This document shows, piece after piece, positions 1-23,121 of a stretch of 64,000 bases of DNA. The stretch lies in the IMG/VR virus record IMGVR_UViG_2568526411_000004; one strand, written 5' to 3'. Numbering within the stretch: position 1 is the first letter of the stretch; each line of letters opens with the position of its first letter. Under the pieces are notes generated by a model. That model had not been told where the DNA came from. It searched no databases and saw nothing but the letters and a program-made list of their open reading frames with translations. The stretch is from a virus. Its lineage: Duplodnaviria; Heunggongvirae; Uroviricota; Caudoviricetes. Made by a program: the position numbers and the translations under genes.

Positions 1-820
1 GGCACTGTTGCAAATAGTCGGTGGTGATAAACTTATCATCCCCTTTTGCTGATGGAGCTGCACATGAACCCATTCAAAGGCCGGCATTTTCAGCGTGACA
101 TCATTCTGTGGGCCGTACGCTGGTACTGCAAATACGGCATCAGTTACCGTGAGCTGCAGGAGATGCTGGCTGAACGCGGAGTGAATGTCGATCACTCCAC
201 GATTTACCGCTGGGTTCAGCGTTATGCGCCTGAAATGGAAAAACGGCTGCGCTGGTACTGGCGTAACCCTTCCGATCTTTGCCCGTGGCACATGGATGAA
301 ACCTACGTGAAGGTCAATGGCCGCTGGGCGTATCTGTACCGGGCCGTCGACAGCCGGGGCCGCACTGTCGATTTTTATCTCTCCTCCCGTCGTAACAGCA
401 AAGCTGCATACCGGTTTCTGGGTAAAATCCTCAACAACGTGAAGAAGTGGCAGATCCCGCGATTCATCAACACGGATAAAGCGCCCGCCTATGGTCGCGC
501 GCTTGCTCTGCTCAAACGCGAAGGCCGGTGCCCGTCTGACGTTGAACACCGACAGATTAAGTACCGGAACAACGTGATTGAATGCGATCATGGCAAACTG
601 AAACGGATAATCGGCGCCACGCTGGGATTTAAATCCATGAAGACGGCTTACGCCACCATCAAAGGTATTGAGGTGATGCGTGCACTACGCAAAGGCCAGG
701 CCTCAGCATTTTATTATGGTGATCCCCTGGGCGAAATGCGCCTGGTAAGCAGAGTTTTTGAAATGTAAGGCCTTTGAATAAGACAAAAGGCTGCCTCATC
801 GCTAACTTTGCAACAGTGCC
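1..820 (+). mobile_element. IS26: IS26 (IS6 family) copy 1, complete 820 bp, terminal inverted repeats GGCACTGTTGCAAA / TTTGCAACAGTGCC
   Basis: The exact IS26 left end is at 1-14 and the right end at 807-820. It encodes the canonical 240-aa Tnp26. Confidence 0.95.
46..768 (+). CDS. tnp26: IS26 transposase (DDE, IS6 family)
   Basis: The 240-aa protein MLMELHMNPFKGRHFQRDIILWAVRWY... is identical to the second copy at 22354-23076. Confidence 0.95.
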   Translation: MLMELHMNPFKGRHFQRDIILWAVRWYCKYGISYRELQEMLAERGVNVDHSTIYRWVQRYAPEMEKRLRWYWRNPSDLCPWHMDETYVKVNGRWAYLYRAVDSRGRTVDFYLSSRRNSKAAYRFLGKILNNVKKWQIPRFINTDKAPAYGRALALLKREGRCPSDVEHRQIKYRNNVIECDHGKLKRIIGATLGFKSMKTAYATIKGIEVMRALRKGQASAFYYGDPLGEMRLVSRVFEM

Positions 821-849
821 AATATAAGTCTTTTGCAAAAGGAATAAAT

Positions 850-2565
850 ATGTCAGAGGTAGTTACGATTGCCGCCGACGCGGTAAATGCCGTGCTGAGT
901 CAGCCCAGCACAAAAGTAAAACTAATCGTTCAAAAGGCGCTTTCGTACCAAGTTGACGGCGCTGAAACAATGGCTGTTTTTAAACAGCATAAGTGGGATG
1001 GCCGTTCGTCCTTCTTTGTGTATAAAAATTGCTCCTTCCCTGCCGGCTTTCTTCATTTCGTCGCTGCCAATCTTCGCCGTGAGGGGTACAAGGTCAATAT
1101 TGTTCGCAAGCCCTTCCCTGCCCCTTTAGGCCCTGAGCGCCCACAGGTAGACGCTTTTGGTTATGACTCTAAATATGATTACCAACCAGAGGTTATGGAC
1201 AGGTTGGTAAAACATGGCCAAATCATTGCTCAGATTGCTACAGGTGGCGGTAAGTCACGTATTGCCCGTCTTTGTTTCGCTCGTATTGCTCGCCCTACCC
1301 TCTTTCTCACCACGCGCTCAATCCTGATGTATCAAATGAAGGATGCGTTTGAGAAAGATATGGGCATTCCATGTTCTGTCTTTGGTGATGGGCAATTTGG
1401 CAACGTGAACGCTCAAGGTCAGACGACTATCAAAATGATGTCGGTTGGCACAGTACAGACATTCATGAGCAAGTTGGAAGTCACCACAATTCAGGAAGAG
1501 TTCAATGTTCTGTTCAATGCCGTGCAGGAGAAGTTCAAAAAAGAAATTGTGGCATTGAAGGGCAAGTTAGCGAAAGCCAAGAAAAGTACAGCTGAAATTA
1601 CAGCTGCTACAAATGATCTGATTTCTAAACAGCAGGCATGGTTGAAGGCCAACAATCAAGACATGGCCAATAAGGCCAAAGCCAAATTTGACGAAAAGAA
1701 TATCGAGCGTCAAAAAACCATCAAGCTTCTTTCCATGTTCGAGTTCGTAATTTTGGAAGAGGCGCATGAAGCTTCAGGTAATTCTTACTACGAAATCTTG
1801 CGCTATTGTAAGAATGCTCATTACCGCTTGGCATTAACCGGTACGCCGTTTATGCGTGAGAGCGAAGAGTCGAACATGCGTCTAATGGCATGCTCTGGCC
1901 CGATCGCAATCAAAGTCACTGAGGAAATGCTAATTCAGCGCGGTGTACTTGCTAAGCCTTACTTCAAATATATTGAGCTTCGCAAAAAGCCAGATCACCT
2001 TCTCCGCACTACTGGTTGGCAATCGGCATATAGATTGGGTGTCACAGAAAATGAAGAACGCAATTTAGCTATTGTGAGTGAGATTATTCGAGCCAAAGCT
2101 TACGGTTTGACGTCGATGATTCTTGTGCAACATACATCGCATGGCGAGCATTTAAACGAGCTTTTAACGCAATATGGTTTACGTGCTGAGTTCATTAAGG
2201 GTGAAAACAATCAAGCTGAGCGCAAACTAGCGTTGAACAAGCTTGCCAGTGGTTCGGTTGATGCGCTAATTGGTACAACCATTTTGGATGTGGGAGTAGA
2301 CGTTCCAGCTGTGGGTATGATTATTCTTGCGGGCGGCGGTAAGGCTGAAATTGCATTGCGTCAACGTATTGGTCGCGGTTTGCGTGCGAAGAAGATTGGT
2401 CCAAATGTGGCGTTCATTGTCGACTTTACAGACCATTGGAATACACATACCAAAAAACATGCTACGCAGCGACGCGAGATTGTTTTGCATACTAAAGGTT
2501 TCGGAGAGAACATTGTTAATGATTTCAATTTTGAACAATTAGGCTTCACCAGATTGTCTGCATAA
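850..2565 (+). CDS. SF2 DEAH-type DNA/RNA helicase
   Basis: Motif I IATGGGKSR, motif II LEEAHE, motif III LTGTPF and motif VI QRIGRGLR are present. The ATG at 850 has an AAGGA SD; the track start at 808 is a TTG inside IS26. Confidence 0.8.
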   Translation: MSEVVTIAADAVNAVLSQPSTKVKLIVQKALSYQVDGAETMAVFKQHKWDGRSSFFVYKNCSFPAGFLHFVAANLRREGYKVNIVRKPFPAPLGPERPQVDAFGYDSKYDYQPEVMDRLVKHGQIIAQIATGGGKSRIARLCFARIARPTLFLTTRSILMYQMKDAFEKDMGIPCSVFGDGQFGNVNAQGQTTIKMMSVGTVQTFMSKLEVTTIQEEFNVLFNAVQEKFKKEIVALKGKLAKAKKSTAEITAATNDLISKQQAWLKANNQDMANKAKAKFDEKNIERQKTIKLLSMFEFVILEEAHEASGNSYYEILRYCKNAHYRLALTGTPFMRESEESNMRLMACSGPIAIKVTEEMLIQRGVLAKPYFKYIELRKKPDHLLRTTGWQSAYRLGVTENEERNLAIVSEIIRAKAYGLTSMILVQHTSHGEHLNELLTQYGLRAEFIKGENNQAERKLALNKLASGSVDALIGTTILDVGVDVPAVGMIILAGGGKAEIALRQRIGRGLRAKKIGPNVAFIVDFTDHWNTHTKKHATQRREIVLHTKGFGENIVNDFNFEQLGFTRLSA

Positions 2566-2571
2566 GAAAGG

Positions 2572-2602
2572 TTGCCACTTTAATGAGTGGCAATTCTTTT
2601 TG
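2572..2602 (+). terminator. rho-independent terminator after the helicase
   Basis: TTGCCACT-ttaatg-AGTGGCAA stem followed by TTCTTTTTGT. Confidence 0.7.
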
Positions 2603-2657
2603 TGACAAAGGTTTATGTATATAATTACTTGCGACAAGACAGTTTTTAGAGAAAGTT

Positions 2658-2936
2658 ATGCCATCGTTTGATTCAAAGAAGTTCTATGACGAAAAGGGTT
2701 TGGTACGTAAGCCATTCACTGTGACGCAAGAAGCCTCAGAGATTATTGCTCGTTTCGCTGAGAAGTACCCTACCCTTACGCAAGGCGATATTGTCTCGGT
2801 TTTGGCAGGTTTTCTTGAAGATGATCGCATGAGCTATGTAGTTGAAGAGGCTTGTGCTAAATTCGCTGAAGCCAAACCACCAAAAATTCATGCGAGAGCT
2901 GGTGGGCGGCCAAAAAAGAAAACAGAAGATTCTTAA
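2658..2936 (+). CDS. hypothetical protein with AT-hook-like C-terminus (GGRPKKK)
   Basis: 92-aa ORF downstream of the helicase on the same strand. Confidence 0.45.
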   Translation: MPSFDSKKFYDEKGLVRKPFTVTQEASEIIARFAEKYPTLTQGDIVSVLAGFLEDDRMSYVVEEACAKFAEAKPPKIHARAGGRPKKKTEDS

Positions 2937-3172
2937 TACTTTATAAGGTAAAAAATATGATGGTGTGGACTCCTACAATTGAAGCGCGTAAAAATTCTGA
3001 ATAACGATATTGAGTATGCGGGAATCAGGCTTTCCGACAAGGATGTGGAAGTATAAGGACTCATTCTCCGGCAGCCAGTCCTGAAAATATAAGGACGTTA
3101 TAGGAGGTCGGAGATTTAGGAAGGCTATGCATCCGGGGTTGAGCGAAATCTCTAGGACTTCGCTACTCTCTG

Positions 3173-3370
3173 TCAATTTAAAACTATGCGCTTGTTTGTA
3201 TGTTCGATATATGTGCATAAGAGCGCGAGACACACATAAAATATAAACGTCATAGCAAAATACAGCTTTGCAAAACTCAATGACACTTCACCGCTAACTG
3301 TATAAAACACCATTACAGCAAGCATGATTAAAACGAACACATTTATGATAATAATTATTAATGTTTTCAT
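3173..3370 (-). CDS. small hydrophobic two-TM protein
   Basis: 65 aa, strongly hydrophobic; a palindromic operator lies just upstream at 3406. Confidence 0.3.
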   Translation of the reverse strand: MKTLIIIIINVFVLIMLAVMVFYTVSGEVSLSFAKLYFAMTFIFYVCLALLCTYIEHTNKRIVLN

Positions 3371-3405
3371 AGCATCGCACCTTACAAGCTACTGACCGCT
3401 TATGC

Positions 3406-3423
3406 AGTCAGTAGTGACTGACT
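3406..3423. promoter_or_regulatory. palindromic operator, variant AGTCAGT-AGTG-ACTGACT
   Basis: Inverted 7-bp arms with a 4-bp spacer. This is the same half-site as the CAGTCAGTACTGACTG family. Confidence 0.6.
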
Positions 3424-3429
3424 TTTAAA

Positions 3430-4131
3430 TTAGCGTTTTTTCTCGATAGTGAATGTTTTAAACATTTCGACTATTAACGCGGTCACGTCTTCACTTGTAA
3501 AGCTGACCATACCGTGTTTTTCACCTTTCACAAGGTCGCATATATTGAACATTTGTAACATTGCTTTAGTTGAACATGTTTGAGTCGGTGCGGTATTCAT
3601 GCCCGTACTATGATACTGTCTAACGCGTTTAACGTTCTCTAACCCGTCTTTGTTCTCTATAGCAGCACACAAGCAACGTTCAAGCTCAAAATGACGTAAT
3701 TGTTTAAACTCGATTAAATTACGCAAAATAGAACGTGTGTACGGGTCAATCTTCATGCAGTTGTTTTGTGCAATTGCTTGCATGAGCTTGCGACACTTAA
3801 CAATTGCTTTGCTTGCTAAATAACCGTCTTTACCTTTTATATCTTCACTGTAATTACCGATAATGTCAGCGAATGCTTTTAGCTCGATACCTTTAATTAA
3901 ACATTGCTCTATAGTTGCTAAACCTGCATCAGTAGAGAAAAAGTTAATTTCACTTACTATGTCGCGTGATAACGGTTGATGCACCTTGCGTATCTCAAGG
4001 TTCGCAAGAATAGTCTTTTGTATGTTCTTAGCGCGTGCTTTGAAGTTTGTTTTAACTTCTTTTTTAGCAGTAGCAGCGTTTTCTATAGTTGTTTCAGCAG
4101 CTAAAAGATCAAGGTTTGCTTTAGTATTCAT
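3430..4131 (-). CDS. hypothetical protein
   Basis: The ORF track runs 3430-4209. An internal ATG at 4131 (MNTKANLD) has a GAGAT SD; the first ATG lacks an SD and sits on the palindrome at 4222-4240. Confidence 0.5.
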   Translation of the reverse strand: MNTKANLDLLAAETTIENAATAKKEVKTNFKARAKNIQKTILANLEIRKVHQPLSRDIVSEINFFSTDAGLATIEQCLIKGIELKAFADIIGNYSEDIKGKDGYLASKAIVKCRKLMQAIAQNNCMKIDPYTRSILRNLIEFKQLRHFELERCLCAAIENKDGLENVKRVRQYHSTGMNTAPTQTCSTKAMLQMFNICDLVKGEKHGMVSFTSEDVTALIVEMFKTFTIEKKR

Positions 4132-4221
4132 AGTAAAAATCTCACATCGGTTAAGTTGTTTTAGATACCGTCTAACTTTTTCGAGTAAGTTGTTTCGGTA
4201 TGAGTACATATTAGCACAAAA

Positions 4222-4240
4222 TTGACTTGTTACAAGTCAA
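4222..4240. promoter_or_regulatory. perfect 9-1-9 palindrome TTGACTTGT-T-ACAAGTCAA (operator)
   Basis: Seen directly. A related imperfect copy is at 4772-4790. Confidence 0.55.
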
Positions 4241-4365
4241 TTATTAAAAATAATTTGTTTATTTGTTTAAATTTTGATCAAACAAATAAACATGCTTTAA
4301 AATGCAATAAAACGCCCTTTTTAGAGCGTTTTATTCAAAATGGTATGATCTATCGACTATAGTGC

Positions 4366-4692
4366 TTAAATCACTGTTAAGCGTATGTTATGCACGTTTA
4401 ACGCAATGCTACGGTACTGCATAAAGTTAAGCATGTATCTATTAATAAAATCATTCATAAATGCGCTTTTAGATACCTTTAAAACTTTTTTGTGCTTAGT
4501 GATAGCTGTTAAGTATTCAATGCGCTTGTTTTGTCTCTCTATGCACTTATCAGCGTGAACTATTGCGCGTTGCTGTATTAAATGCATGTATGCGCGTTTA
4601 CCTTCTAATACACTATTAAGCAATTCACTATCATTGTTTAATTCATTAGCAAGTTTAGCTATAGCATTTTTACGCATAATTTGAGTTGTCAT
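4366..4692 (-). CDS. hypothetical protein
   Basis: 108-aa ORF with an AGAAGG SD upstream. Confidence 0.5.
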   Translation of the reverse strand: MTTQIMRKNAIAKLANELNNDSELLNSVLEGKRAYMHLIQQRAIVHADKCIERQNKRIEYLTAITKHKKVLKVSKSAFMNDFINRYMLNFMQYRSIALNVHNIRLTVI

Positions 4693-4771
4693 GATAAAAC
4701 CTTCTATTTAGTTAAGTTGTGTTTGTCGGTTTGTTTCGAGCTAACCGACTGAGTGAATAATTGCACCTAAA

Positions 4772-4790
4772 TTGACTTGTTGCAAGTTAA
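4772..4790. promoter_or_regulatory. imperfect copy of the TTGACTTGT-T-GCAAGTTAA palindrome
   Basis: Lies upstream of the 4692 gene start. Confidence 0.45.
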
Positions 4791-5090
4791 TTTTGAACGC
4801 AAAATAATCACTCGTTAAAAATAAAAACGAAATTAGAGTCAAAATCAATGAAAACCTTATGGCACAAGGGTTGGCGCGATTTTTGGGTGATCACGTCCGA
4901 GGCAATTCCTATCAAAAATTGGATTGCCGTGTGGCTCTTCCACGGCGGCACTGAGGCGAGTGGCAGCTCCTTATGCGAGCGTGCGGGTGTTTTAGGAAAA
5001 TTCTATAGTTCAGCCGAGGCAACGCCGTTTTTCACTCTTGGATGGGGCGTGGATCTGCTTTGGATTGTCCTAGGCATGTTGCGTACGATA

Positions 5091-5117
5091 ATAAAAAACC
5101 GCTCAAGTTAGAGCGGT
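5091..5117 (-). terminator. rho-independent terminator (ACCGCTC-aagtta-GAGCGGT)
   Basis: Stem-loop followed by a T-run on the minus strand, downstream of the 5215 gene. Confidence 0.65.
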
Positions 5118-5214
5118 GCAGTCATGTCCATGTTGAGTGAGCATCAGCGCTGTTCTACACAGCATGAAGGCGGTCAATTAAGCTCAACCGCGTTCACTTA
5201 ATCAATGTGTCAGC

Positions 5215-5712
5215 TTAATTGTGCAAGTCGTCGTATGTTGCTTTGCTTCCATCAGAAAATTCTATTACACAATTTTCTAGGTCCACTATCATGCTATCAG
5301 TGCGCTTTAGCTCACTTCGATAATGTTGGATTTCTTCGTCATCTTCTTCATCTATGAGGTCAATTACATGTGCGCAGTAGTCTGTAATGTCGTTAATCTC
5401 TGCAACTGCTGCATATAGCGCTTTGTGTTGTTCGTGATTAAGATGTGATAAATCCATTGTGCTGAAGTATTCGTAGAAGTCCTTAATTGTCAAACCGTCG
5501 ACATACGTATAGTTTTTAGCTGATAGGTTTTTATTATCCGCATCTTCTTTAGAGTGAGAGCTATAGCGAAAAACACCCTCGTCATTCTTGTGACTTGGAC
5601 CGCACAGAGGAGATACGTTGTGTAGATATAAAGATATTATGCACGGTCGATCGAATCCTATAATTACTGCGTCATATCCTGATCTCGCTATACGGTGTGC
5701 TGTAACTTTCAT
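5215..5712 (-). CDS. hypothetical acidic protein (C-terminal DEEDDEE run)
   Basis: 165 aa with an ATG start; the conserved leader lies upstream. Confidence 0.55.
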   Translation of the reverse strand: MKVTAHRIARSGYDAVIIGFDRPCIISLYLHNVSPLCGPSHKNDEGVFRYSSHSKEDADNKNLSAKNYTYVDGLTIKDFYEYFSTMDLSHLNHEQHKALYAAVAEINDITDYCAHVIDLIDEEDDEEIQHYRSELKRTDSMIVDLENCVIEFSDGSKATYDDLHN

Positions 5713-5719
5713 TTTTTAA

Positions 5720-5753
5720 CTCTATGTTGCTTGTTTCGATAGAGCTATTTTCT
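5720..5753 (-). promoter_or_regulatory. conserved early leader GAAAATAGCTCTATCGAAACAAGCAACATAGAG (minus-strand sense)
   Basis: Belongs to the ATCGAAACAA leader family and is preceded by TCCACAAAC...ATTGAGAAAAT promoter-like sequence. Confidence 0.6.
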
Positions 5754-5910
5754 CAATGCGTTTGTGGATATATAACACATGGCTTAGGCGTTGTGTGCAT
5801 GTTGCCTATGGGGGGTGGCCGCGCCGTGGATGTGCCGAGGATTGGCCTCATGAAAAATGCCTAGGCCTGTGCCTAAGTGAAAATTGGATTGGCCTAGGAA
5901 ACAATATGAT

Positions 5911-5939
5911 CAAAAGAAAACCGCTCATACAGAGCGGTT
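5911..5939 (-). terminator. rho-independent terminator (AACCGCTC-ataca-GAGCGGTT)
   Basis: Stem-loop plus TTTTCTTTTG on the minus strand, downstream of the 5947 gene. Confidence 0.65.
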
Positions 5940-5946
5940 CAGAGTG

Positions 5947-6312
5947 TTAGCGTTTAAAGTTTAAGTGTGTCAATTCTTGCATTTGCTCACACATAAATTG
6001 TTGAGCTTCGATATAAGTCGTAAATATTACTTGTCGAGTTATCTTTGAGACTTCATACACAAAGTCATCGGTCTGTGAAAGGTTATACGCTTCAAGTTTT
6101 TCATGCTTATCTGCGTCCACTTTGCAAACGTTTACTAAATAATGAATCTCTTCTTCATTTTCATGCACAGACAAATGAAGCGCATAAGCATCAATTCCAG
6201 AGTTCAACAAGATGATTTGACCGTAATGTACGTTTAACACATCTAAATCAGCTATATGCGAAAAGGTCCAGTCGCTTTTCTTTACTTCATCGTTGCTGTC
6301 ATAAGTTTTCAT
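5947..6312 (-). CDS. hypothetical protein
   Basis: The track start at 6372 is a TTG lying upstream of the promoter and leader. The ATG at 6312 (MKTYDSNDE) directly follows the conserved leader. Confidence 0.55.
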   Translation of the reverse strand: MKTYDSNDEVKKSDWTFSHIADLDVLNVHYGQIILLNSGIDAYALHLSVHENEEEIHYLVNVCKVDADKHEKLEAYNLSQTDDFVYEVSKITRQVIFTTYIEAQQFMCEQMQELTHLNFKR

Positions 6313-6349
6313 AGCTCTATCTCTATGTTGTTTCGATAGAGCTATTTTC
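6313..6349 (-). promoter_or_regulatory. conserved early leader ...AAAATAGCTCTATCGAAACAACATAGAGATAGAGCT-ATG
   Basis: Preceded by AAATTGTTTGTCCAAAATCAGCTTGTGAAAAT, which reads as a -35 TTGTTT, a 17-nt spacer and an extended -10 TGTGAAAAT. Confidence 0.6.
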
Positions 6350-6405
6350 ACAAGCTGATTTTGGACAAACAATTTAAGGACTTGGAGACGTTAAGTCTTT
6401 TTTGC

Positions 6406-6699
6406 TCATATCTTCAACTCCGCTGTGTCGGTTTGTTTTGGATAACAATTGCAGCCTATCGACAATTCCTCACTGACACCGCCCCACTCTGCCACTATAT
6501 CTAGGTCGCTGTGATTGTAGGCTTGATTGTGACCGCAAGGTTTCCATGTATTTAAACCGCGTGGGCGTAGCTTACCTCTAAACATCTTCCAAACAGAGCC
6601 TTTTATAGCGAATGTGCCATCACCGTTTACTTCGTGAACTGTAACTCGGCTACCGTTGCGTGTGCGGTAGTCGCCTGCTTTAGTTATTAGTTGAGTCAT
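6406..6699 (-). CDS. hypothetical protein
   Basis: ATG at 6699 (MTQLITKAGDY) downstream of an ATATCGAAACGAACAA leader; the track start at 6783 is an upstream extension. Confidence 0.5.
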   Translation of the reverse strand: MTQLITKAGDYRTRNGSRVTVHEVNGDGTFAIKGSVWKMFRGKLRPRGLNTWKPCGHNQAYNHSDLDIVAEWGGVSEELSIGCNCYPKQTDTAELKI

Positions 6700-6707
6700 G
6701 ATTAAAC

Positions 6708-6735
6708 CCGTTGTTCGTTTCGATATGTATTGTGA
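6708..6735 (-). promoter_or_regulatory. leader-family element CATATCGAAACGAACAACGGG
   Basis: Variant of the ATCGAAACAA leader. Confidence 0.45.
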
Positions 6736-7240
6736 TATTTCATAGCTGGATATGCACCGCATGGCATAGGCAATATTCATCAATCGCCTATTCCGATTAA
6801 CCGCATGTTTGTGCCGAGGACATGCCAGTTTTTGCGTGGAACATTCCGAGGATTCGCCGTGATATTTTGAATTGGCAGCTGTGAGGAATAGCCTCGGCGC
6901 GAAAATTTTTGTTCCACTTGCCTGTGTGTATGTGTGATTTTTTAGGAAATATTTAGTTCAGGAAATTTGTTGGGATTTTTCATTTTCTCTATAAAGATTT
7001 TAAGTCATGACCATTCCGATGTGAAAACGCTAGAAGAAGTGAAAATGCCCCCCCTTCCCCCCCATAGCCTAAAAAGACATTTACATGAGAAGGAAGGGAG
7101 AAGGCATCTACTTCATCCGCGCCACATCGGAATGCGAACATTCCGTAGTTGGTAAACGCCGACCCTAAGCAAAACGCACCCCTATCGAAAAGCAAGATGG
7201 GTCCACTGCCAGCAGTGAAAACTATCTTGGGTGCAATTGT

Positions 7241-7258
7241 AGTCAGTGCTTACTGATT
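7241..7258. promoter_or_regulatory. degenerate palindrome AGTCAGT-GCTT-ACTGATT
   Basis: Same half-site family, one mismatch. Confidence 0.35.
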
Positions 7259-7721
7259 TTTCAAGTGTAAGAAGTTTGGCTGAAACAATTTTTTAACAAC
7301 AGAATCCACCGCTCCCTTCGGTCGCTCCATGCACATTGCACAACTCCTCTCTCTATGTGTTATTACTCTATAACCGCCTATACACATACTTCCTATTGTT
7401 CTTACTCTCCGTGTATGATGAATTGTCCTTCTAGCTATACTTAGTGAAATCCTTATTGTGTATAGTGTTCAGTATGTACTTATCATTATCCGTGTAGTTG
7501 TTAGAGTTTTTGTCTGTATTGATTGATTGTTTTTAAGATCGTTTGCAATTGTTCTATTGTTTATCAGTTTGATTATTTAGATAGCATTATGAAAATATGC
7601 TGTTTGAGTTAAATTTGCTGTTCTATGGCTTAGTTGTAGATTAGTTGGATTGTTTGTCAGTAAGTTATCTATTCTTTAGTACGTTTTGGAATTTAGTTGT
7701 CTGGTGTTTGAATAGTAAGTC

Positions 7722-7779
7722 CGTATTATCATATTACCGTGTGTATGTATGGTCGTATGGTAATACGGTAATATGATAT
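7722..7779. other. lox-like inverted-repeat site A (TATCATATTACCGT arms around GTGTATGTATGGTCGTATG)
   Basis: About 80% identical over ~55 bp to site B at 56203-56254, which sits next to the tyrosine recombinase gene. Confidence 0.45.
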
Positions 7780-8124
7780 TTCAGCCTAGAGATAAATTGC
7801 CTCATTCTGTGCCTGATAATTTGTTATAGCGTTCAGGTAAAAAATACAGCCTTAAAGTAAATTTGCTATTTGCGCATAGAATCGTTTTAGAGAGCGTTTT
7901 GCTTGTGTTTAGTATGATTCATCATCTTAGTGATAAAAGCGTCTCTAACGCGCGTTTATAAGCGATTATAAGCGGTTTAAGTGAGAGTGTTTGCTTATCT
8001 GGTTTTAGCATGGTTCGGCGGGTAAGTAATGAATTAGTTACAAGTCAGTTTATTTGTATAAAAATACTTATAAATCAATGATGTATAATAATATCTCTAT
8101 AACTGTCTGTTTTTGCTTATTTTA

Positions 8125-8165
8125 GATAAAAAAGAGCCAGCTCTAAAGAGGGGCGTAGAGCTGGC
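8125..8165 (-). terminator. rho-independent terminator (GCCAGCTCTA...AGAGCTGGC)
   Basis: Stem-loop followed by TCTTTTTTATC on the minus strand. Confidence 0.55.
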
Positions 8166-8430
8166 AAAAAGGTGACTTGTGAGACTTTTTTCTCTATCAA
8201 TACACTCGAATATTCTATCTAAAGAGCTTCGTTGTCTTGATGTGAGTATTGTATAAATACCGAGTAGGATTGAGAAGGGGAGGCGTTTATATCGCCTGTC
8301 GTGTTTCCTATTAAACTCATTATAATGATTGCATGTAACGTGAATTGAGTACGGCGTATGTTGACCGCATTAATTGTTCTTGGAGCGATAGGGCTCATTT
8401 ATTTGATGCTCAAAGCCATGAAGTGATTAG

Positions 8431-8474
8431 ACAAAAAGCCCTGAGCATTCAGGGCTATTATTTAGTTATTTTCT
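8431..8474. terminator. bidirectional terminator (AGCCCTGA-gcat-TCAGGGCT)
   Basis: The hairpin is flanked by T-runs on both strands, downstream of the 8546 gene. Confidence 0.65.
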
Positions 8475-8545
8475 AATTGCGCAAATATCTGCTCAAAAAT
8501 GATCGATTTCATAAAAAAAGTGCAAATATTTGCTCAATATTGGTC

Positions 8546-9088
8546 TTAATAGTTTCGGTAAACCTTTCCTTCAGCTACAAGATAATCACTAATTAAAGCG
8601 TCGCGCCCGTAACGTTCATAGTCGAAATAACCTTGAATGTCCTCTGGTATTTCCAAAGCAGAACATTCATCAATTAAATAGCGTCCAAAATCATCGTCAT
8701 TTTCGTAGTCACACACGTAACGATCTTCGTGCCACTCTTTAACGTTTGACCAATCAGCATAGTTGCCTTCAACTAATGCAGCGTATGTGCCAACTTCTTT
8801 AACTTCATCAAGATCAAGGCTTACTAAAAACTCAATTAAAGTTTCAAGCATTTTGAATGATGAGACTTTTATCTCTTCGTTGGCCCAAGTGTCTTCTAGC
8901 TGCCAAAACTCTATCTCTACATCGCCTAACTCATCTATGAAGTCGTCGTATTCATCAAAGTAAAGGTTAAAACCGTGTTGATGCGTAAAGCTGAAGCCTT
9001 CTAAGCGAAAACGTTTCTTGTTATCAGGGTTAGAAAACTTCGCTAAAAACTGCTCTATAGTCACTTGATCGTTAGTTTCGTAAGTCAT
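8546..9088 (-). CDS. hypothetical highly acidic protein
   Basis: 180 aa, rich in D/E (DEYDDFIDELGD, YENDDDFG); ATG start with the conserved promoter and leader upstream. Confidence 0.6.
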   Translation of the reverse strand: MTYETNDQVTIEQFLAKFSNPDNKKRFRLEGFSFTHQHGFNLYFDEYDDFIDELGDVEIEFWQLEDTWANEEIKVSSFKMLETLIEFLVSLDLDEVKEVGTYAALVEGNYADWSNVKEWHEDRYVCDYENDDDFGRYLIDECSALEIPEDIQGYFDYERYGRDALISDYLVAEGKVYRNY

Positions 9089-9092
9089 TTTA

Positions 9093-9125
9093 AAAATCTC
9101 TTTGCTTGTTTCGATGAAGTAATTC
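9093..9125 (-). promoter_or_regulatory. conserved early leader TTCATCGAAACAAGCAAAGAGATTTTTAAA-ATG
   Basis: Preceded by AAATTGTTTGTCCAAAAACCGATTGAGAGAAT (a -35, a 17-nt spacer and an extended -10). Confidence 0.6.
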
Positions 9126-9174
9126 TCTCAATCGGTTTTTGGACAAACAATTTGTGGCTTAGGCGTTGTTATCT

Positions 9175-9205: not shown

Positions 9206-9223
9206 AAATTAGTGGACTTTAAT

Positions 9224-9610: not shown

Positions 9611-9640
9611 CTCTATTTGTTTCGATAGAGTAATTTTCAC
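9611..9640 (-). promoter_or_regulatory. conserved early leader GTGAAAATTACTCTATCGAAACAAATAGAGTTAAACATA-ATG
   Basis: CTCTAT...ATAGAG inverted repeat around CGAAACAA. Confidence 0.6.
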
Positions 9641-9795
9641 AATTGAAAATAGGGGAGACAAAGGCAACATACGTTGCCTTGTGTGTTAGCCATACTGCAT
9701 GCATTGCATGCAAACGCTGATATTTACATTGGTGCTGATTGAGTTTGCTGTGCATCCAAGTAATGCAACGCACGCCAAGATTATTACTAATGGCT

Positions 9796-15066: not shown

Positions 15067-15132
15067 GGTTGCGACTCTCTGTTAAGTTAAATGTATGATA
15101 GATAAATAATTTTGGGGTTAAATGCTGGCGTC

Positions 15133-15540: not shown

Positions 15541-15597
15541 GCGCTTATCTCTTAATACGGTGAGATAAATATATAAAATACATCGCGGATTATAAAC

Positions 15598-15611
15598 AGT
15601 CAGTACTGACT
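15598..15611. promoter_or_regulatory. palindromic operator AGTCAGTACTGACT followed, in the minus-strand sense, by TTTATAAT
   Basis: Perfect palindrome. Confidence 0.65.
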
Positions 15612-15751
15612 GATCAATTGGAATTGTGATTATTTATAAAAAAATGCGTTTTAAGCGCTTTTAGATAAAAAGGGTGTAATTTATTAACCGTGACGAACAA
15701 ACGCGATATACGAGAAAATACGCGCATTAAAAAGGGCAATTTAATTGCCCT

Positions 15752-16141: not shown

Positions 16142-16144
16142 TGA

Positions 16145-17098: not shown

Positions 17099-17125
17099 TG
17101 CGTTGTTTCGATGAATGAATTATGA
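17099..17125 (-). promoter_or_regulatory. conserved early leader TTCATTCATCGAAACAACGCA-ATG
   Basis: Leader-family member. Confidence 0.55.
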
Positions 17126-17201
17126 CTAACCGCCGTTGGACAAAAAATAGATTTTGATGGCGAGCTGCAAAGGTCGCCTTGAGCAAGATTTGGTCAACTT
17201 A

Positions 17202-17912
17202 CTAAGCGCAATTCAACTCTTCGTTTTTAAGTGGAGCATCATATGAAACGGGCTTAAACGTATTACAGCATTCGTAAATGCTTGTTGAGCCTACTGGATC
17301 TGAGATCACTAGCGTTCCATCTTGACGTTGCATGAAATTACCCGTGTGGAGGTCGGGAAATGCATCGGAATTTTGCTTCAAAAATTTAGCCATTGTTAAA
17401 AAACTCATGCTAAGCGATGGGTGATCTTTTAAATGGTCATCAAACGCCAAATCCATTAAGCAAGTGATATTTCGCTCATGGCGGTCATCAATAAAGCTAC
17501 AACCATTTAGAATGCGTAATTTTTTACAAATACGATTCACCAATGAGCGATTAGGCCCCTTAACAGGTAGCTTATGAAGTCGTTCAACCTCATACAAGTA
17601 CATCGGTACAGGCATGGTTTTGGGTTGAGTAATAGCAGTCTTGCTAATGTTTTTGCCAACAATAAATTCACCCACTTTGCCAAAGTCCCGGATAGGCCGA
17701 GTGAAATGATTACTCTCGCGAGATAGAGAGTAGGGGCCAAACAATGACTCATAACCCATAGCGTCAATACTTAGTTTTAAAACCGTATCTGAATTACCGC
17801 TTTCGTAGACACCTGAGAACTGTCCACGCGCAATCAATTTTTTCCCTTTGAGTGCGCTATGAGTGTTTCTAACCGTCTTCACGCTTTGATCGTTTAAAAT
17901 AAAAATGTTCAT
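17202..17912 (-). CDS. protein-kinase-like fold protein
   Basis: Gly-rich loop ARGQFSGVY, VLKL lysine, catalytic-loop-like DLHTGNFMQRQDG and ISDPVG (DFG-like). Confidence 0.45.
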   Translation of the reverse strand: MNIFILNDQSVKTVRNTHSALKGKKLIARGQFSGVYESGNSDTVLKLSIDAMGYESLFGPYSLSRESNHFTRPIRDFGKVGEFIVGKNISKTAITQPKTMPVPMYLYEVERLHKLPVKGPNRSLVNRICKKLRILNGCSFIDDRHERNITCLMDLAFDDHLKDHPSLSMSFLTMAKFLKQNSDAFPDLHTGNFMQRQDGTLVISDPVGSTSIYECCNTFKPVSYDAPLKNEELNCA

Positions 17913-18000
17913 ATTCTCTTAGACTTAACAAATTCAATCTATTAGATACTTTTTTAGTTGGAGACTAAACGCGAGGGGGTTATTTGCCAGTCTGGAAATT

Positions 18001-18252
18001 TCAAAATTGATGATCTAAATAATCTGCATATGCAACTGATTTTCTACTCTTTTCCATTAATAGCAGAATTATTTTACTACGCAAACTTATTGGAATAGGG
18101 CGTTCTTCCGCCATCCATTGTCTTACTCTGCTTGAGTCCACATCAATCGCGCGAGCCAATTCTGTTTGCCATTGAGTGCCGTAAAGTATCTCACCTGCCT
18201 GTTTTAACTCTTCGGGCGACATGCGAGAGGCTTCAGAATCAAGGTTATCCAT
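18001..18252 (-). CDS. Cro/YdaS-like HTH regulator
   Basis: TQWQTELARAIDVDSSRVRQWMAEERPIP matches an XRE/Cro-type HTH. The ATG at 18252 is used; the track start is a TTG. Confidence 0.55.
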   Translation of the reverse strand: MDNLDSEASRMSPEELKQAGEILYGTQWQTELARAIDVDSSRVRQWMAEERPIPISLRSKIILLLMEKSRKSVAYADYLDHQF

Positions 18253-18440
18253 GTTCAATCCTATGATTTGTCAGCCGATAAAGAAAAAGCAATTAGATTT
18301 TTCCAATTGCCTTTCCCCCAACTTAACTAAGTTATCTCATCGTTTTCCTATCTTTCGATAGGCTCGAAACAAACAAACAAGATAAAGAGAGTTTTACAAC
18401 TCATTGGATAAATATAACCGCATGAATCGCTAGGGTCAAG

Positions 18441-18716
18441 TTACAATTGGTCAATCAAATATTTGTATCGTTCAAAATTCTCAGTAGAACTTTCAAGGTC
18501 TTCGGTTAGGAAAAACCAAACTTCGTTAAATATATCCAGCTTCTTTTGAACTTCAGCCTTTATCATATGAGTAGCCATGCCGATTACAAGCAAAACCACC
18601 GCGCCTATCCAGAAAGGCGGGAAAAACAAACAAAGAAACCCAATAATCAAACATCCGTATGAAATGCGCTTAGTGTTTCTAAAGCTCTTTGTTTCGATTG
18701 ATATGTTTTCTTGCAC
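18441..18716 (-). CDS. small membrane protein
   Basis: Two hydrophobic helices. Confidence 0.4.
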   Translation of the reverse strand: MQENISIETKSFRNTKRISYGCLIIGFLCLFFPPFWIGAVVLLVIGMATHMIKAEVQKKLDIFNEVWFFLTEDLESSTENFERYKYLIDQL

Positions 18717-18870
18717 TTCTGATAAGAGGCTTTTAAATTCTTCTTCGCCTACAAGGTGTTTAAATATAATCTTTAAGCGTCATAATCACAGGTTAAATTT
18801 CAAGGACTTGGACATATATTACAATGATTCCTTCGTGACTTGAAATTTAACTTGTGGCTATTGGGCCAGA

Positions 18871-19404
18871 TCACACAATCTTATAAAAACCGCGATCTAA
18901 GCCTGCAAAGAAACACTGCATCATTACATCGACGTCATAGTCGGCTGCGTGAGCTGCATTGGGGTCATAATCAATATTGAGCGCAAAACAAAGTTCGCCC
19001 AATTTCGGTGATTTTCCATCAAAAGTAGCCCATCGACCATTTTCCATCGTACAGAACTGACGAACAGGCGGTAATAAGGATCCAACGCGTCTAAGCTCTG
19101 CTTGCGTAAAGGGCATATCAAAGTCAATGTTATGAGCAATTACTACGTCAGCTGTGCTTAAAAGGTGATGCACAGTTGGCGCAACTTGTTCCCATTTAGG
19201 GCAACCTAAAAGCTGGCTATAATCAATTCCGTGAACAGCCTGAGCTTTGGGGTCGATCGGTCGTTCTGGATCGATGCGTTGTACGTATTTATCAACGAGC
19301 TGTCTTGTGTCTGAGTCATAAGACAAAATTGCAACTTCAATAATGCGATGACCGTCGGCTTGCTCTAAACCTGTAGTCTCGGTATCAAAACCACGTAAAA
19401 TCAT
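18871..19404 (-). CDS. DnaQ-like 3'-5' exonuclease (DEDDh)
   Basis: Exo I FDTETTG, exo II HNIDFD and exo III HAADYD motifs. Confidence 0.75.
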   Translation of the reverse strand: MILRGFDTETTGLEQADGHRIIEVAILSYDSDTRQLVDKYVQRIDPERPIDPKAQAVHGIDYSQLLGCPKWEQVAPTVHHLLSTADVVIAHNIDFDMPFTQAELRRVGSLLPPVRQFCTMENGRWATFDGKSPKLGELCFALNIDYDPNAAHAADYDVDVMMQCFFAGLDRGFYKIV

Positions 19405-19676
19405 TCTGAAACGCCTTCCTCAGTAATCGTATTTTTAGTTGAATAAGGGAAAGTAAACTGCAAAGTGTTGATAACTGCCTTGATAGTGTTTTGAGCTATT
19501 CGAATTTCATCTGGATTATCAAGCAAAATCTTCTCTTTGCCGGTGTTGAGAATAATATGCTTTGGCTCTTGACCTTCTTCGCTTTGAACAATGCCAGTTA
19601 AGCGATTTAAAGTGTCTTCAAACCAAACTTCGGTTTCCTGAAGCATTTCTAAGTGACTTCTTGCTATATTTTTCAT
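19401..19676 (-). CDS. hypothetical protein
   Basis: 91-aa ORF with an ATGA overlap to the exonuclease gene. Confidence 0.45.
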   Translation of the reverse strand: MKNIARSHLEMLQETEVWFEDTLNRLTGIVQSEEGQEPKHIILNTGKEKILLDNPDEIRIAQNTIKAVINTLQFTFPYSTKNTITEEGVSE

Positions 19677-19710
19677 TGCATAACCGCCTATTGCTTAATG
19701 GTTTATTGAT

Positions 19711-19728
19711 TCAGTCAGTGATGACTGA
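19711..19728. promoter_or_regulatory. palindromic operator variant TCAGTCA-GTGA-TGACTGA plus an extra half-site at 19731-19740
   Basis: Half-site family with a 4-bp spacer. Confidence 0.55.
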
Positions 19729-19771
19729 TCTCTGACTGAATTGTAAAACATCAATACTGGCTTATCAGCTA

Positions 19772-20593
19772 TTACTTAACGTTTACGAGTGGAGTTGCGC
19801 TATTTGAAGGGAGTAAAACAGTGTGAGTGCCTTGTTGAGCAAAGGCTTGTTGTGCTTCAATTTCCATCTTTTTGATTAGCATTGGCGTGAGTGACGCACC
19901 AACAATACGGTTGGCTTCAGCTTCAGCACGAGCTTTGGTTAAAGTAACTTGGGCTTGAGCATCTGCAAGGTGTTGCTCTTCTTTTTTACGTGATATATCA
20001 AATTCAATTTGAGCGGCACGAGTAATTGCTTGTTCCAATTTTTCGTCAGTAACAAGAGCGCGGACAGAAGCACCAGCAATGGTAAATGTATTGGGCATTT
20101 CTTTATCTAAAGACTTCTGTAATGAAGCTACAACATCAGCCGCGATTTCATCACGCTTTAGATGAATTTCGCTGGAATCATATTTTGCCGTTGCTTTGAA
20201 AACCGCTTCAAGTGCATGGCGTTTAACAAAGCGTTCGCCCACCACTGTGTCGCCGTCTTTATTTGCCCCCAAGTCACCAGCTAGTTTAGAAAGTGTGTCA
20301 GCGACTTTATTTGGCTGAATCATGTAACGAATGTCCATATCGACTTCTTGCATCGATACATTATCTTTCGTCTTCGGGTGAATGTTTTCAAGTGGAACGG
20401 TAGTTTCACGGACGCTAATTACCTTTAGGTCACGAGTGATGGTTTGATACACACCCGGAGCCAATTCGTCCATTTTCATTTTGCCGAAAACCGATTCAAC
20501 ACCTACGTGACCAGTTTCAACCTTTGAACAACCAGTAAAAGCCATTGTCATGCCGACAGTGAGAGCTATAAGGATTGAGCTTTTTAACTTCAT
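19772..20593 (-). CDS. SPFH/band-7 domain lipoprotein
   Basis: Signal peptide plus lipobox (AFTGCS). The central region looks like a prohibitin/HflKC-type domain with a coiled-coil C-terminus. Confidence 0.55.
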   Translation of the reverse strand: MKLKSSILIALTVGMTMAFTGCSKVETGHVGVESVFGKMKMDELAPGVYQTITRDLKVISVRETTVPLENIHPKTKDNVSMQEVDMDIRYMIQPNKVADTLSKLAGDLGANKDGDTVVGERFVKRHALEAVFKATAKYDSSEIHLKRDEIAADVVASLQKSLDKEMPNTFTIAGASVRALVTDEKLEQAITRAAQIEFDISRKKEEQHLADAQAQVTLTKARAEAEANRIVGASLTPMLIKKMEIEAQQAFAQQGTHTVLLPSNSATPLVNVK

Positions 20594-20594
20594 G

Positions 20595-20777
20595 TTAAGT
20601 TCCTATAGTCGCATAAACGTAAATAGCCAAAAGTACAGTGATAACGACTAAGATTTGCCATCTGTACTTGTTCAAGTGACTAAACGCCAATTTGCGAATT
20701 TTTGTGTTAAATGCCGCTGTCACAAACGCAACAACGACAAGGATGATTAAAAGTGTTTTGAAGAGAATTGAGATCAT
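20595..20777 (-). CDS. 60-aa two-TM membrane protein (possible minimal NfeD-like partner)
   Basis: Hydrophobic; translationally coupled to the SPFH gene. Confidence 0.35.
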   Translation of the reverse strand: MISILFKTLLIILVVVAFVTAAFNTKIRKLAFSHLNKYRWQILVVITVLLAIYVYATIGT

Positions 20778-21007
20778 TTCTTCTTAGGCTGAGCTTTGCG
20801 TTTAACTTTGGATTTGAGGATGATCTTTTCGATTTCATTCTTGTTAGCAAGAATGAACGATTTAACATCCACATCATCAATGAAAGCAGGCAATTCAGAC
20901 TCGACATACGCATGGTTAATACGGAGAGCTTCTTCATGCTTTACATATTCATCGTAAGTGCGGTGAAGTGTGCCGTCAGATGCTTGATGTACCGTAATAC
21001 GTGGCAT
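20774..21007 (-). CDS. hypothetical small protein
   Basis: 77 aa with a Lys-rich C-terminus. Confidence 0.4.
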   Translation of the reverse strand: MPRITVHQASDGTLHRTYDEYVKHEEALRINHAYVESELPAFIDDVDVKSFILANKNEIEKIILKSKVKRKAQPKKK

Positions 21008-21009
21008 TT

Positions 21010-21726
21010 TTAAGCTCCTGCCTTCAGATCAGTGCCGAAACCACGTTCTTTAAGAAAGTTGGTCACTTCATCACGAAGGGTTTGGGTGCCCATGTCTTCA
21101 AAAGTTTGAGTGATTTGCTTAACAACATCTTCCAAAGCAACACCGCGTTCCTGAAGGGCCATGAAATTCAGAGCGGTCAACTTAATTAACTCTTTGATAT
21201 ATTCAGCTTCCGAGTATTTGTTTTCGTCGCCGTTGTTTAAAGCTACGCTTAAACCGCTCAAAACGCCCACGCTTTGTTGCGTGCGAAGTAATAACTCATC
21301 AAGATTTGGCACTACAAAGCGATGCATTTTTTCGCTCGCTGTATATGCTTGATCTAACGTATTGATGTTTACCGCTTGGATTTTGTTACCACCTGAAGCC
21401 ACAAAATTTGCATGTTTTGGAAGTGCTTGATTTGCTCCCGCTGTACTAATTTTGCCTTCAGCTTTTGTTGCTTTGCCTAGAAGACCTAAACTTGAAATTA
21501 CCCCACTATCTGTAATTTGCACTCCAGCTCCACCCACAGGGCCAGCAGCGAGGTTAGCATTCGAAACAAAAAATTGATTTGCAGCTGCTTTAGTTTCAGT
21601 TGTCGCGGCTTTATCAGTAGAAGGATTGAGTTCAGCTGGTCGTAAACCATCTTTGGTCATTTCTAAAACTACCACTTGGCCCATTCCAGATTTTTCAATT
21701 TCCTTTGCAAAACAGTGAAGGCACAT
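21010..21726 (-). CDS. hypothetical protein
   Basis: 238-aa ORF; a possible internal start is at MGQVVVLE. Confidence 0.5.
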   Translation of the reverse strand: MCLHCFAKEIEKSGMGQVVVLEMTKDGLRPAELNPSTDKAATTETKAAANQFFVSNANLAAGPVGGAGVQITDSGVISSLGLLGKATKAEGKISTAGANQALPKHANFVASGGNKIQAVNINTLDQAYTASEKMHRFVVPNLDELLLRTQQSVGVLSGLSVALNNGDENKYSEAEYIKELIKLTALNFMALQERGVALEDVVKQITQTFEDMGTQTLRDEVTNFLKERGFGTDLKAGA

Positions 21727-21817
21727 CTTTTGTATTCCTAAAATTAATTTTGAACTTCATAAAAGCACCGCTAAACGGTTGTAGCGTTCCCTTGTGTGCT
21801 TTTATGGCGAAAAGTAT

Positions 21818-21831
21818 AGTCAGTACTGACT
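21818..21831. promoter_or_regulatory. palindromic operator AGTCAGTACTGACT followed, in the minus-strand sense, by TATACT
   Basis: Perfect palindrome. Confidence 0.65.
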
Positions 21832-21878
21832 GATTTAATGGCAAATATTTTTCACAAAAACAATTAACCAAACATTAT

Positions 21879-22217
21879 TTAATCAGTTGCGATCGTAATC
21901 ATCCGCAGAGCAATGCGCTCAACCTCTCTAAGAGGAAGTGCTTCGGGATTCTCGTGTATGACATTGGTGTTTGACGAAAGGAAACCCCAATCGCCGTCCG
22001 TCAAACACTTTGTTTTACCCGCAAACTCAAGCATCCAAAGATCATTTTGAGCATCGTAATAGAACCCATCGCGAAATTCGCGAAAGTAAAACTTAGCATC
22101 ATCACTGTTAAAGCTATGTTCTGTTAAATATTTAATCGCTTGAGACGCAACTAAACGACTAATTTTTTCTTTTGGTTGGGTCCAATACCAATCAAGCTTC
22201 ATTGCGGTAGTGTGCAT
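21879..22217 (-). CDS. hypothetical protein
   Basis: 112-aa ORF. Confidence 0.45.
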   Translation of the reverse strand: MHTTAMKLDWYWTQPKEKISRLVASQAIKYLTEHSFNSDDAKFYFREFRDGFYYDAQNDLWMLEFAGKTKCLTDGDWGFLSSNTNVIHENPEALPLREVERIALRMITIATD

Positions 22218-22301
22218 ATTATCTACCAGCTGCTATCCGAAGATGATGAACTGCTACTGTCATACGATGAGCCGCCGTCTGAGCTGTACGATGAAGAACT
22301 C

Positions 22302-23121
22302 GGCACTGTTGCAAAGTTAGCGATGAGGCAGCCTTTTGTCTTATTCAAAGGCCTTACATTTCAAAAACTCTGCTTACCAGGCGCATTTCGCCCAGGGGAT
22401 CACCATAATAAAATGCTGAGGCCTGGCCTTTGCGTAGTGCACGCATCACCTCAATACCTTTGATGGTGGCGTAAGCCGTCTTCATGGATTTAAATCCCAG
22501 CGTGGCGCCGATTATCCGTTTCAGTTTGCCATGATCGCATTCAATCACGTTGTTCCGGTACTTAATCTGTCGGTGTTCAACGTCAGACGGGCACCGGCCT
22601 TCGCGTTTGAGCAGAGCAAGCGCGCGACCATAGGCGGGCGCTTTATCCGTGTTGATGAATCGCGGGATCTGCCACTTCTTCACGTTGTTGAGGATTTTAC
22701 CCAGAAACCGGTATGCAGCTTTGCTGTTACGACGGGAGGAGAGATAAAAATCGACAGTGCGGCCCCGGCTGTCGACGGCCCGGTACAGATACGCCCAGCG
22801 GCCATTGACCTTCACGTAGGTTTCATCCATGTGCCACGGGCAAAGATCGGAAGGGTTACGCCAGTACCAGCGCAGCCGTTTTTCCATTTCAGGCGCATAA
22901 CGCTGAACCCAGCGGTAAATCGTGGAGTGATCGACATTCACTCCGCGTTCAGCCAGCATCTCCTGCAGCTCACGGTAACTGATGCCGTATTTGCAGTACC
23001 AGCGTACGGCCCACAGAATGATGTCACGCTGAAAATGCCGGCCTTTGAATGGGTTCATGTGCAGCTCCATCAGCAAAAGGGGATGATAAGTTTATCACCA
23101 CCGACTATTTGCAACAGTGCC
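22302..23121 (-). mobile_element. IS26: IS26 copy 2, complete, inverted relative to copy 1
   Basis: GGCACTGTTGCAAA at 22302-22315 is the reverse complement of the right end; TTTGCAACAGTGCC is at 23108-23121. The flanking 8-mers AAGAACTC and ACTACAAC differ, so there is no simple TSD. Confidence 0.95.
22354..23076 (-). CDS. tnp26: IS26 transposase
   Basis: The 240-aa protein is identical to the one encoded at 46-768. Confidence 0.95.
   Translation of the reverse strand: MLMELHMNPFKGRHFQRDIILWAVRWYCKYGISYRELQEMLAERGVNVDHSTIYRWVQRYAPEMEKRLRWYWRNPSDLCPWHMDETYVKVNGRWAYLYRAVDSRGRTVDFYLSSRRNSKAAYRFLGKILNNVKKWQIPRFINTDKAPAYGRALALLKREGRCPSDVEHRQIKYRNNVIECDHGKLKRIIGATLGFKSMKTAYATIKGIEVMRALRKGQASAFYYGDPLGEMRLVSRVFEM

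Follow-up and report, generated by a model that had tools for sequence, protein, structure and literature searches.

Adjacent deletion as the favored explanation for an inverted IS26 pair in an Acinetobacter baumannii phage-plasmid

How did two complete copies of IS26 come to face each other across 21.5 kb of phage-plasmid DNA? The question is raised by IMG/VR virus record IMGVR_UViG_2568526411_000004 (Caudoviricetes), from which a stretch of 64,000 nucleotides, referred to below as the window, was analyzed. The window is the first 64 kb of the element; its base 1 is base 1 of the first IS26 copy, and the left flank of that copy lies outside the data. An earlier note, made from the letters of the window, took the pair to be the product either of an intramolecular IS26 inversion or of an IS26 cointegrate formed with a resistance plasmid. 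By comparison with relatives free of the insertion sequence (IS), what the window appears to show is instead an ordinary IS26 adjacent deletion, and we consider it probable, at roughly 70%, that the window represents an IS26-remodelled deletion derivative of a ~107-kb A. baumannii phage-plasmid of AB subgroup 2. A route made up of deletions only ranks first among the explanations considered, both by parsimony and by the window as assembled.

A repeat search of the window returned a single inverted repeat pair, with arms of 820 nucleotides at positions 1 to 820 and 22302 to 23121 that are 100% complementary and 21,481 nucleotides apart. Each arm is a complete IS26, copy 1 on the plus strand and copy 2 on the minus strand, and both are base for base the same as the IS26 copies annotated in NZ_CP031445. 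The 820-bp size, the 14-bp terminal inverted repeats GGCACTGTTGCAAA / TTTGCAACAGTGCC (positions 1 to 14 and 807 to 820 in copy 1, and 22302 to 22315 and 23108 to 23121 in copy 2), and a single 234-amino-acid DDE transposase, Tnp26, all identify the element as IS26. The tnp26 gene of copy 1 occupies positions 64 to 768 on the plus strand; its product matches PF13610 DDE_Tnp_IS240 (E = 2.4e-48, 164 bits), and its DNA is 100% identical to a coding sequence annotated as WP_001067855.1, "IS6-like element IS26 family transposase." The left inverted repeat (IRL) of copy 1 is at base 1 and its right inverted repeat (IRR) abuts the leader of a helicase gene; in copy 2 the IRR points toward the bracketed segment and the IRL away from it, such that the IRR ends of the two copies face inward, toward the 21,481-bp segment between them. 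We label as H the junction of IS26 with base 821, on the helicase side; as X that of base 22301 with IS26; as Z that of IS26 with base 23122; and as G1 a junction in a minor-capsid gene, described below. The flanks of copy 2 differ, being AAGAACTC at positions 22294 to 22301 and ACTACAAC at positions 23122 to 23129, with no 8-bp direct target duplication. The inner flank of copy 1, AATATAAG (positions 821 to 828), lies in IS-free relatives 1 nucleotide after the start codon of a ParB/RepB/Spo0J gene. On all of these structural points the earlier note was accurate: the copies are complete, identical and inverted, copy 2 lacks a direct repeat, and copy 1 ends 29 bp upstream of the helicase start codon, an ATG at position 850.

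The same note had held the DNA between the copies to be native, and a BLAST map of the window against NZ_CP031445 (112,216 bp) agrees, yielding two colinear blocks on the same strand and a remainder that is only IS26. Window positions 821 to 22301 correspond to NZ_CP031445 37356 to 58836 with 2 single-nucleotide polymorphisms (SNPs), a result repeated against other relatives, and positions 23122 to 64000 correspond to 66621 to 107499 at 100% identity. The first block, segment C, is 21,481 bp of native backbone that runs from the helicase gene to a hypothetical gene, includes ardA and genes for an AAA ATPase, an SPFH protein, and a 3′-5′ exonuclease, and is colinear with IS-free relatives. The second is the start of what we call segment A and carries dut, thyX, ribonucleotide reductase (RNR) genes, SbcCD-like genes, a recombinase gene, dnaE, an integrase-like gene, parA, and a ligase gene. 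By this map everything in the 64-kb window except IS26 is phage-plasmid backbone, with no foreign DNA; no msr(E)/mph(E), other insert, or resistance gene was found within the 64 kb.

What the map does reveal is a gap at copy 2. In 24 PLSDB relatives, the stretches that border this copy (window 20302 to 22301 and 23122 to 25121) share a strand and extend over 6,475 bp, against 4,000 bp in the query, and copy 2 stands in for exactly 2,475 bp of backbone, equivalent to CP026705 31238 to 33712. The missing block holds a Phage_ProQ_C-like gene, a gene annotated in RefSeq as "toprim domain," one hypothetical gene, and the first 380 bp of WP_004716719. Window position 22301 equals CP026705 33713, within the coding sequence at 33333 to 33791, and a 79-bp 3′ remnant of this WP_004716719-type gene, cut by copy 2, persists on the minus strand at positions 22223 to 22301. 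This remnant and the outer flank ACTACAAC mark the left and right edges, respectively, of the 2,475-bp deletion. Comparison with IS-free relatives therefore speaks against an inversion, since segment C and the DNA that follows it keep their ancestral order and share one strand, with 2,475 bp gone between them.

The replicon to which this backbone belongs is, from its near identity to typed plasmids, a ~107-kb A. baumannii phage-plasmid of AB subgroup 2, Rep type R3-T9/GR30, of the pABUH5-114 type. Window positions 821 to 8000 match 27 A. baumannii plasmids in PLSDB, 104.6 to 113.7 kb in size, at identities of at least 99.9%, while a phage collection gave zero matches to the window backbone. 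The relatives combine genes for portal, terminase, major capsid, tail, and holin proteins with genes for ParA and an initiator of the RepB family; their structural genes and rep map outside the part covered by the window. Their Rep protein, WP_000095317.1, is of type R3-T9/GR30, exemplified by pABUH5-114 (PMC9927589), and a literature search on the R3-T9 type or the deletion lineage turned up this typing paper only. Four of the relatives, NZ_CP026705, NZ_CP027122, NZ_CP031445, and NZ_CP040426, are listed as AB-group subgroup 2 phage-plasmids with msr(E)/mph(E) in Table S1 of Pfeifer et al. 2022 (PMC9600943). Over 62 kb the window is 99.99 to 100% identical to NZ_CP031445, itself typed AB / AB_subgroup2. 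The phage-plasmid is also very common, given that its helicase protein is present in 3,630 blocks of an assembly collection.

Intramolecular replicative transposition of IS26 produces a deletion or an inversion, with loss of the flanking repeats (Varani et al. 2021, PMC7986276). At copy 2 the features are those of an adjacent deletion: backbone has been lost from the very end of the IS onward, leaving a truncated gene and no target duplication. We suggest that IS26 first landed in or beside the 2,475-bp stretch and that the landed copy would then have undergone intramolecular replicative transposition in cis, deleting the adjacent 2,475 bp. The missing target duplication at copy 2 would be a consequence of this adjacent deletion. 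Copy 1 may share the same deletion history, as sister assemblies suggest, in which case its left flank is probably CGTTAGGT, in the minor-capsid gene. Among the four flanks CGTTAGGT, AATATAAG, AAGAACTC, and ACTACAAC, no pair is identical or reverse complementary; therefore, every IS26 end has been parted from its original partner, as deletions predict.

Simple IS26 insertions in the relatives, by comparison, keep their 8-bp duplications. An IS26-msr(E)-mph(E)-IS26 unit lies inside the toprim gene of NZ_CP031445 with the duplication GAGCGCAT, 953 bp away from the site of the window junction between IS26 and position 23122, and an IS26 array lies inside the RNR alpha gene of NZ_CP026705 with flanks that overlap by 8 bp. 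A third IS26 insertion site, in a gene adjoining toprim, is seen in pPB364_1. Three independent IS26-bounded msr(E)-mph(E) insertions were delimited in the relatives (NZ_CP031445 60367 to 65667, NZ_CP040426 at ~10.2 to 14.7 kb, and NZ_CP026705 at 17.5 to 24.2 kb). Because two of the three insertion sites fall within the 2,475-bp toprim region deleted in the window, this stretch is evidently dispensable and repeatedly hit. One of the three insertions additionally has an aphA1 fragment, and the msr(E)-mph(E) unit of NZ_CP031445 contains partial inverted IS26 pieces at 61184 to 61729 (546 bp) and 64550 to 64847 (298 bp), which are signs of earlier IS26-on-IS26 events. The earlier note had concluded that a phage-plasmid has been drawn into IS26-mediated traffic. 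IS26 has indeed acted on this phage-plasmid, but its entry into the family was already known, since four plasmids of the family with IS26-flanked msr(E)/mph(E) have been published; in such phage-plasmids IS6/IS26 transposases adjoin the resistance genes, and in AB-like elements resistance insertions are said to cluster in one locus (Pfeifer et al. 2022, PMC9600943).

The IS26 junctions of the window are lineage specific. No PLSDB plasmid has junction H, X, or G1; Z is likewise absent from NZ_CP031445, the sole other PLSDB candidate, and exact junction searches of viral, genome, and metagenome contig collections gave no match. The lineage could be traced by a SNP at position 21985, where the window has C and all 27 PLSDB relatives have A, a change that is nonsynonymous in a 112-amino-acid open reading frame (ORF) at positions 21879 to 22217 on the minus strand. 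The exact 112-amino-acid variant was found on 11 draft contigs, and a separate protein record of the variant lists 10 contigs, the longest of 86,737 bp. No further lineage-specific protein variants were found near Z or G1, where differences are synonymous or belong to the relatives. Three of the 11 contigs with the variant protein are described here. JMOI01000030.1 is 23,121 bp long, the exact span of window positions 1 to 23121, and its first 11,243 bp equal window 23121 to 11879 at 100%. JFWZ01000022.1 (22,133 bp) is as long as segment C would be with an incomplete IS26 on either side, and its retrieved end opens with 315 bp of IS26. JFET01000021.1 (62,075 bp) has junction X as in the window, but beyond the IRL it runs into CP031445 15400 to 24495, a stretch with tail genes, an HK97-gp10-like gene, and, as its last 88 bp, the 3′ end of the minor-capsid gene; the flank of IS26 at this junction, G1, is CGTTAGGT.

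The junctions of the lineage thus comprise two IRR ends (H and X) and two IRL ends (Z and G1), which bound exactly two retained segments: segment C, from H to X (21,481 bp), and segment A, from Z via the rep and tail genes to G1 (70,091 bp). On balance we lean toward the simplest closed circle, in which A, C, and two IS26 copies make up 93,212 bp and both the 2,475-bp block and a block of 12,860 bp are absent. The latter, CP031445 24496 to 37355, contains most of the minor-capsid gene, the major capsid, portal, terminase, thioredoxin, and ABC-type ATPase genes, two genes with ParB N-terminal domains, and others. Since Rep and ParA would be kept in segment A, the derivative should, as predicted from gene content, replicate as a plasmid while being unable to build or fill capsids. 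More tentatively, it is possible that IS26 has made a transmissible phage-plasmid into a head-less plasmid of ~93 kb that has spread or persisted clonally in a hospital A. baumannii lineage (at least 11 assemblies) and whose 21.5-kb early-gene segment flips. If true, this would be a datable, IS-bounded case of an AB-group phage-plasmid becoming a plasmid; if confirmed, it would show cleanly how an insertion sequence can put out of action the phage side of an Acinetobacter phage-plasmid that is common in the clinic, with a bearing on how often such elements still spread resistance genes as virions.

The orientation of segment C differs between assemblies. In JFET01000021.1 the order is G1, IS26, and the reverse complement of X, with segment C flipped relative to segment A, whereas the window reads X, IS26, Z, with segment C in its ancestral orientation. 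All four junction sequences are common to these two isomers and only the linkage through the 820-bp IS differs, for which reason reads or inserts shorter than 820 bp cannot separate them. The 21.5-kb segment could flip through homologous recombination between the inverted IS26 copies; both isomers may exist by this means, or one may be the assembler's choice. Contig starts that coincide with an IS boundary, like that of the window, are typical of breaks in the assembly graph. The orientation of a segment between inverted 820-bp repeats is accordingly not to be trusted from short-read contigs.

Several other histories could place two inverted IS26 copies around native DNA, and they differ in what they require of flanks and backbone. 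An inverted IS pair is just what intramolecular transposition in trans yields (Varani et al. 2021, PMC7986276), and after an inversion of this kind each copy's inner flank should be reverse complementary to the outer flank of the other. Here AATATAAG is not equal to GTTGTAGT, the reverse complement of ACTACAAC, and window positions 821 to 22301 and 23122 to 64000 have the same strand and order as in NZ_CP031445 and 24 other plasmids. The left 8-mer that inversion predicts for copy 1, GAGTTCTT, is unlikely, because the left-end flank of the non-Z IS26 in the sister assembly is CGTTAGGT. An intramolecular inversion without backbone loss was rejected on the colinearity of the segment, the absent 2,475 bp, and the flanks. 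A cointegrate with a resistance plasmid, or a pseudo-compound transposon, calls for direct IS26 copies around foreign DNA and an outer 8-bp duplication; it too was rejected, the copies being inverted and the 64 kb holding neither foreign DNA nor a resistance gene. The model of the earlier note, in which one such event made the pair without any loss of backbone, is consistent with two identical inverted copies and with the absence of a direct repeat at copy 2, yet we regard it as very improbable. It survives only if the path from X through IS26 to Z is misassembled and the ParB-like gene (beginning CTTATATT) is the true right neighbor of copy 2. A fuller history with a genuine inversion deserves more weight, although we think it distinctly unlikely: one IS26 would have inverted the 21.5-kb segment by transposition in trans, creating the second copy, after which two adjacent deletions, of the 12.9-kb and 2.5-kb blocks, would have erased the flank signatures, and the segment would have flipped back or have been oriented arbitrarily in assembly. 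Its appeal is that a single intermolecular acquisition of IS26 suffices, that trans transposition is a documented source of inverted pairs (PMC7986276), and that JFET01000021.1 carries the segment inverted relative to the tail module. It requires as many events as the deletion-only route or more (four plus the flip), though, leaves no inversion flank signature to be seen, and must account for a window that is assembled in ancestral orientation.

A further alternative concerns copy 1, which could be a simple IS26 insertion in the 30-bp gap between the ParB-like and helicase genes, with AATATAAG as its duplication and an undamaged head and packaging module on its left side. A deletion would then be tied to copy 2 alone, the left flank of copy 1 would be expected to be CATAAATATAAG, and the minor-capsid junction of the sister contig would be a third IS26 copy or a mis-join. 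The ParB-like gene is directly upstream of window position 821 in 24 of 24 contigs read and in each of the 27 PLSDB relatives, some relatives have IS26 insertions that retain their duplications, and the window carries no direct evidence on its own left flank. We nevertheless consider a simple insertion unlikely. The sister lineage, with the same unique SNP and the same X junction, has an IS26 left-end junction at the minor-capsid gene; adding a junction of ParB with IS26 would bring the left-end junctions to three and require a third right-end junction, of which none was seen. The 23,121-bp and 22,133-bp contigs show the segment bounded by IS26 at both ends in other isolates but are silent on ParB. 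Deletion at both copies remains our preferred reading, and several considerations count against it. The same sequence would result from a true IS26 inversion with two deletions and a flip after it, and sequence alone cannot separate the two histories. The left flank of copy 1 lies beyond the window, as does the head-module loss, which is outside its direct view and rests on one sister contig whose path through an 820-bp repeat may be the assembler's choice. If the window was assembled from short reads, moreover, neither the orientation of the segment nor the pairing of X with Z through IS26 is secure. Whichever history applies, an inverted IS26 pair without target duplications is not in itself a sign of inversion or plasmid fusion.

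The position of copy 1 may have consequences for the ResIII/DEAD-box helicase gene (positions 850 to 2565, plus strand), which would be cut off from its putative native promoter. The candidate promoter is recognized by analogy with a recurrent motif. A palindrome, TCAGTCAGTACTGACTGA, occurs with at most 3 mismatches at 14 sites in the window against 0 expected; 4 sites are inside the IS26 pair and 10 outside, in line with the earlier note's view that both regions have motifs in common. These 18-nucleotide sites start at positions 3404, 15596, 19711, 21816, 27865, 29873, 33311, 37765, 44232, 45425, 51704, 53835, 54288, and 61581. The palindrome is found mostly before leftward genes, usually with TATACT after it on the strand that carries the downstream genes, and the consensus GATCAGTCAGTACTGAC-TATACT has 28 sites in a whole relative. 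In a representative promoter-like copy, TTGAAA is followed by 18 nucleotides that include the palindrome and then by TATACT. To judge from this layout, the palindrome looks like one operator placed in the spacer of many promoters, and, if so, a single regulator would control most of the element.

One copy of the motif, GATCAGTCAGTACTGACTTATACT at CP031445 37321 to 37347, points rightward to the helicase gene, and its −10 element ends 8 nucleotides before the site of copy 1. It looks, then, as if copy 1 separates the helicase from an apparent regulated promoter. A scan for a hybrid promoter at the junction of IS26 with the helicase returned 0 sites, the outward −35 sequence TTGCAA (positions 808 to 813) having no suitably spaced −10. 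With the native promoter separated and no new one predicted at the junction, the helicase, if expressed at all, would now depend on read-through from tnp26 on the same strand. Against this stands a generic sigma-70 scan that calls nothing at the native helicase promoter site, the promoter reading being one of motif analogy.

Other repeats were noted in the window. Two related arrays with an 8-bp period, of the GTATTACC / GGTAATAC type and 87% alike, lie at positions 7714 to 7781 and 56189 to 56248. One is between the integrase-like gene and parA, where it could serve as a centromere or resolution site; the other is inside the bracketed segment, in a 1.7-kb stretch (~6800 to 8500) that has no ORF of at least 100 amino acids. 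A family of repeats of 46 to 68 nucleotides starting with TTGTTTCGATAGAGCTATTTTC is found at positions 5727 to 5794, 6324 to 6391, 9102 to 9169, 9617 to 9662, and 17103 to 17148, all within the bracketed segment and just upstream of several small leftward genes, including ardA (positions 8546 to 9088). Early or anti-restriction genes may have these repeats in common as a leader or a regulatory element. Scans of the window for tRNA genes and Rfam families found nothing.

Among known systems, the nearest are other rearrangements caused by IS26. Harmer and Hall are said to have worked on IS26 transposition in cis, in which an adjacent deletion releases a translocatable unit. He et al. reportedly described, in mBio in 2015, inversions caused by IS26 in clinical plasmids. 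Such inversions resemble the window in having an inverted IS26 pair around native DNA, but here the diagnostic reverse-complement 8-bp flanks are lacking and the segment is not inverted in the window. Closer is adjacent deletion by transposition in cis as set out by Varani et al. 2021 (PMC7986276), with which the window shares a complete IS26 abutting backbone where relatives are contiguous, a block missing from the exact IS end, a truncated gene, and no 8-bp duplication; there is no difference in kind. The msr(E)-mph(E) relatives of AB subgroup 2 have a backbone 99.99 to 100% identical to that of the window and an identical IS26. Those checked have direct IS26 arrays, resistance genes, and intact 8-bp duplications, whereas the element studied here has an inverted IS26 pair, no resistance gene in 64 kb, no duplications, and a loss of backbone. 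Finally, if the inference from the sister contig holds, the derivative would resemble P1-like elements that were converted from phage-plasmids to plasmids when phage genes were lost (Pfeifer and Rocha 2024, PMC10879196), in that capsid, portal, and terminase would be lost while Rep and ParA are kept, and in that the derivative persists, in at least 11 assemblies. No IS was pinned to the loss in those conversions; here the loss would be bounded by IS26 and would have befallen an AB-type element.

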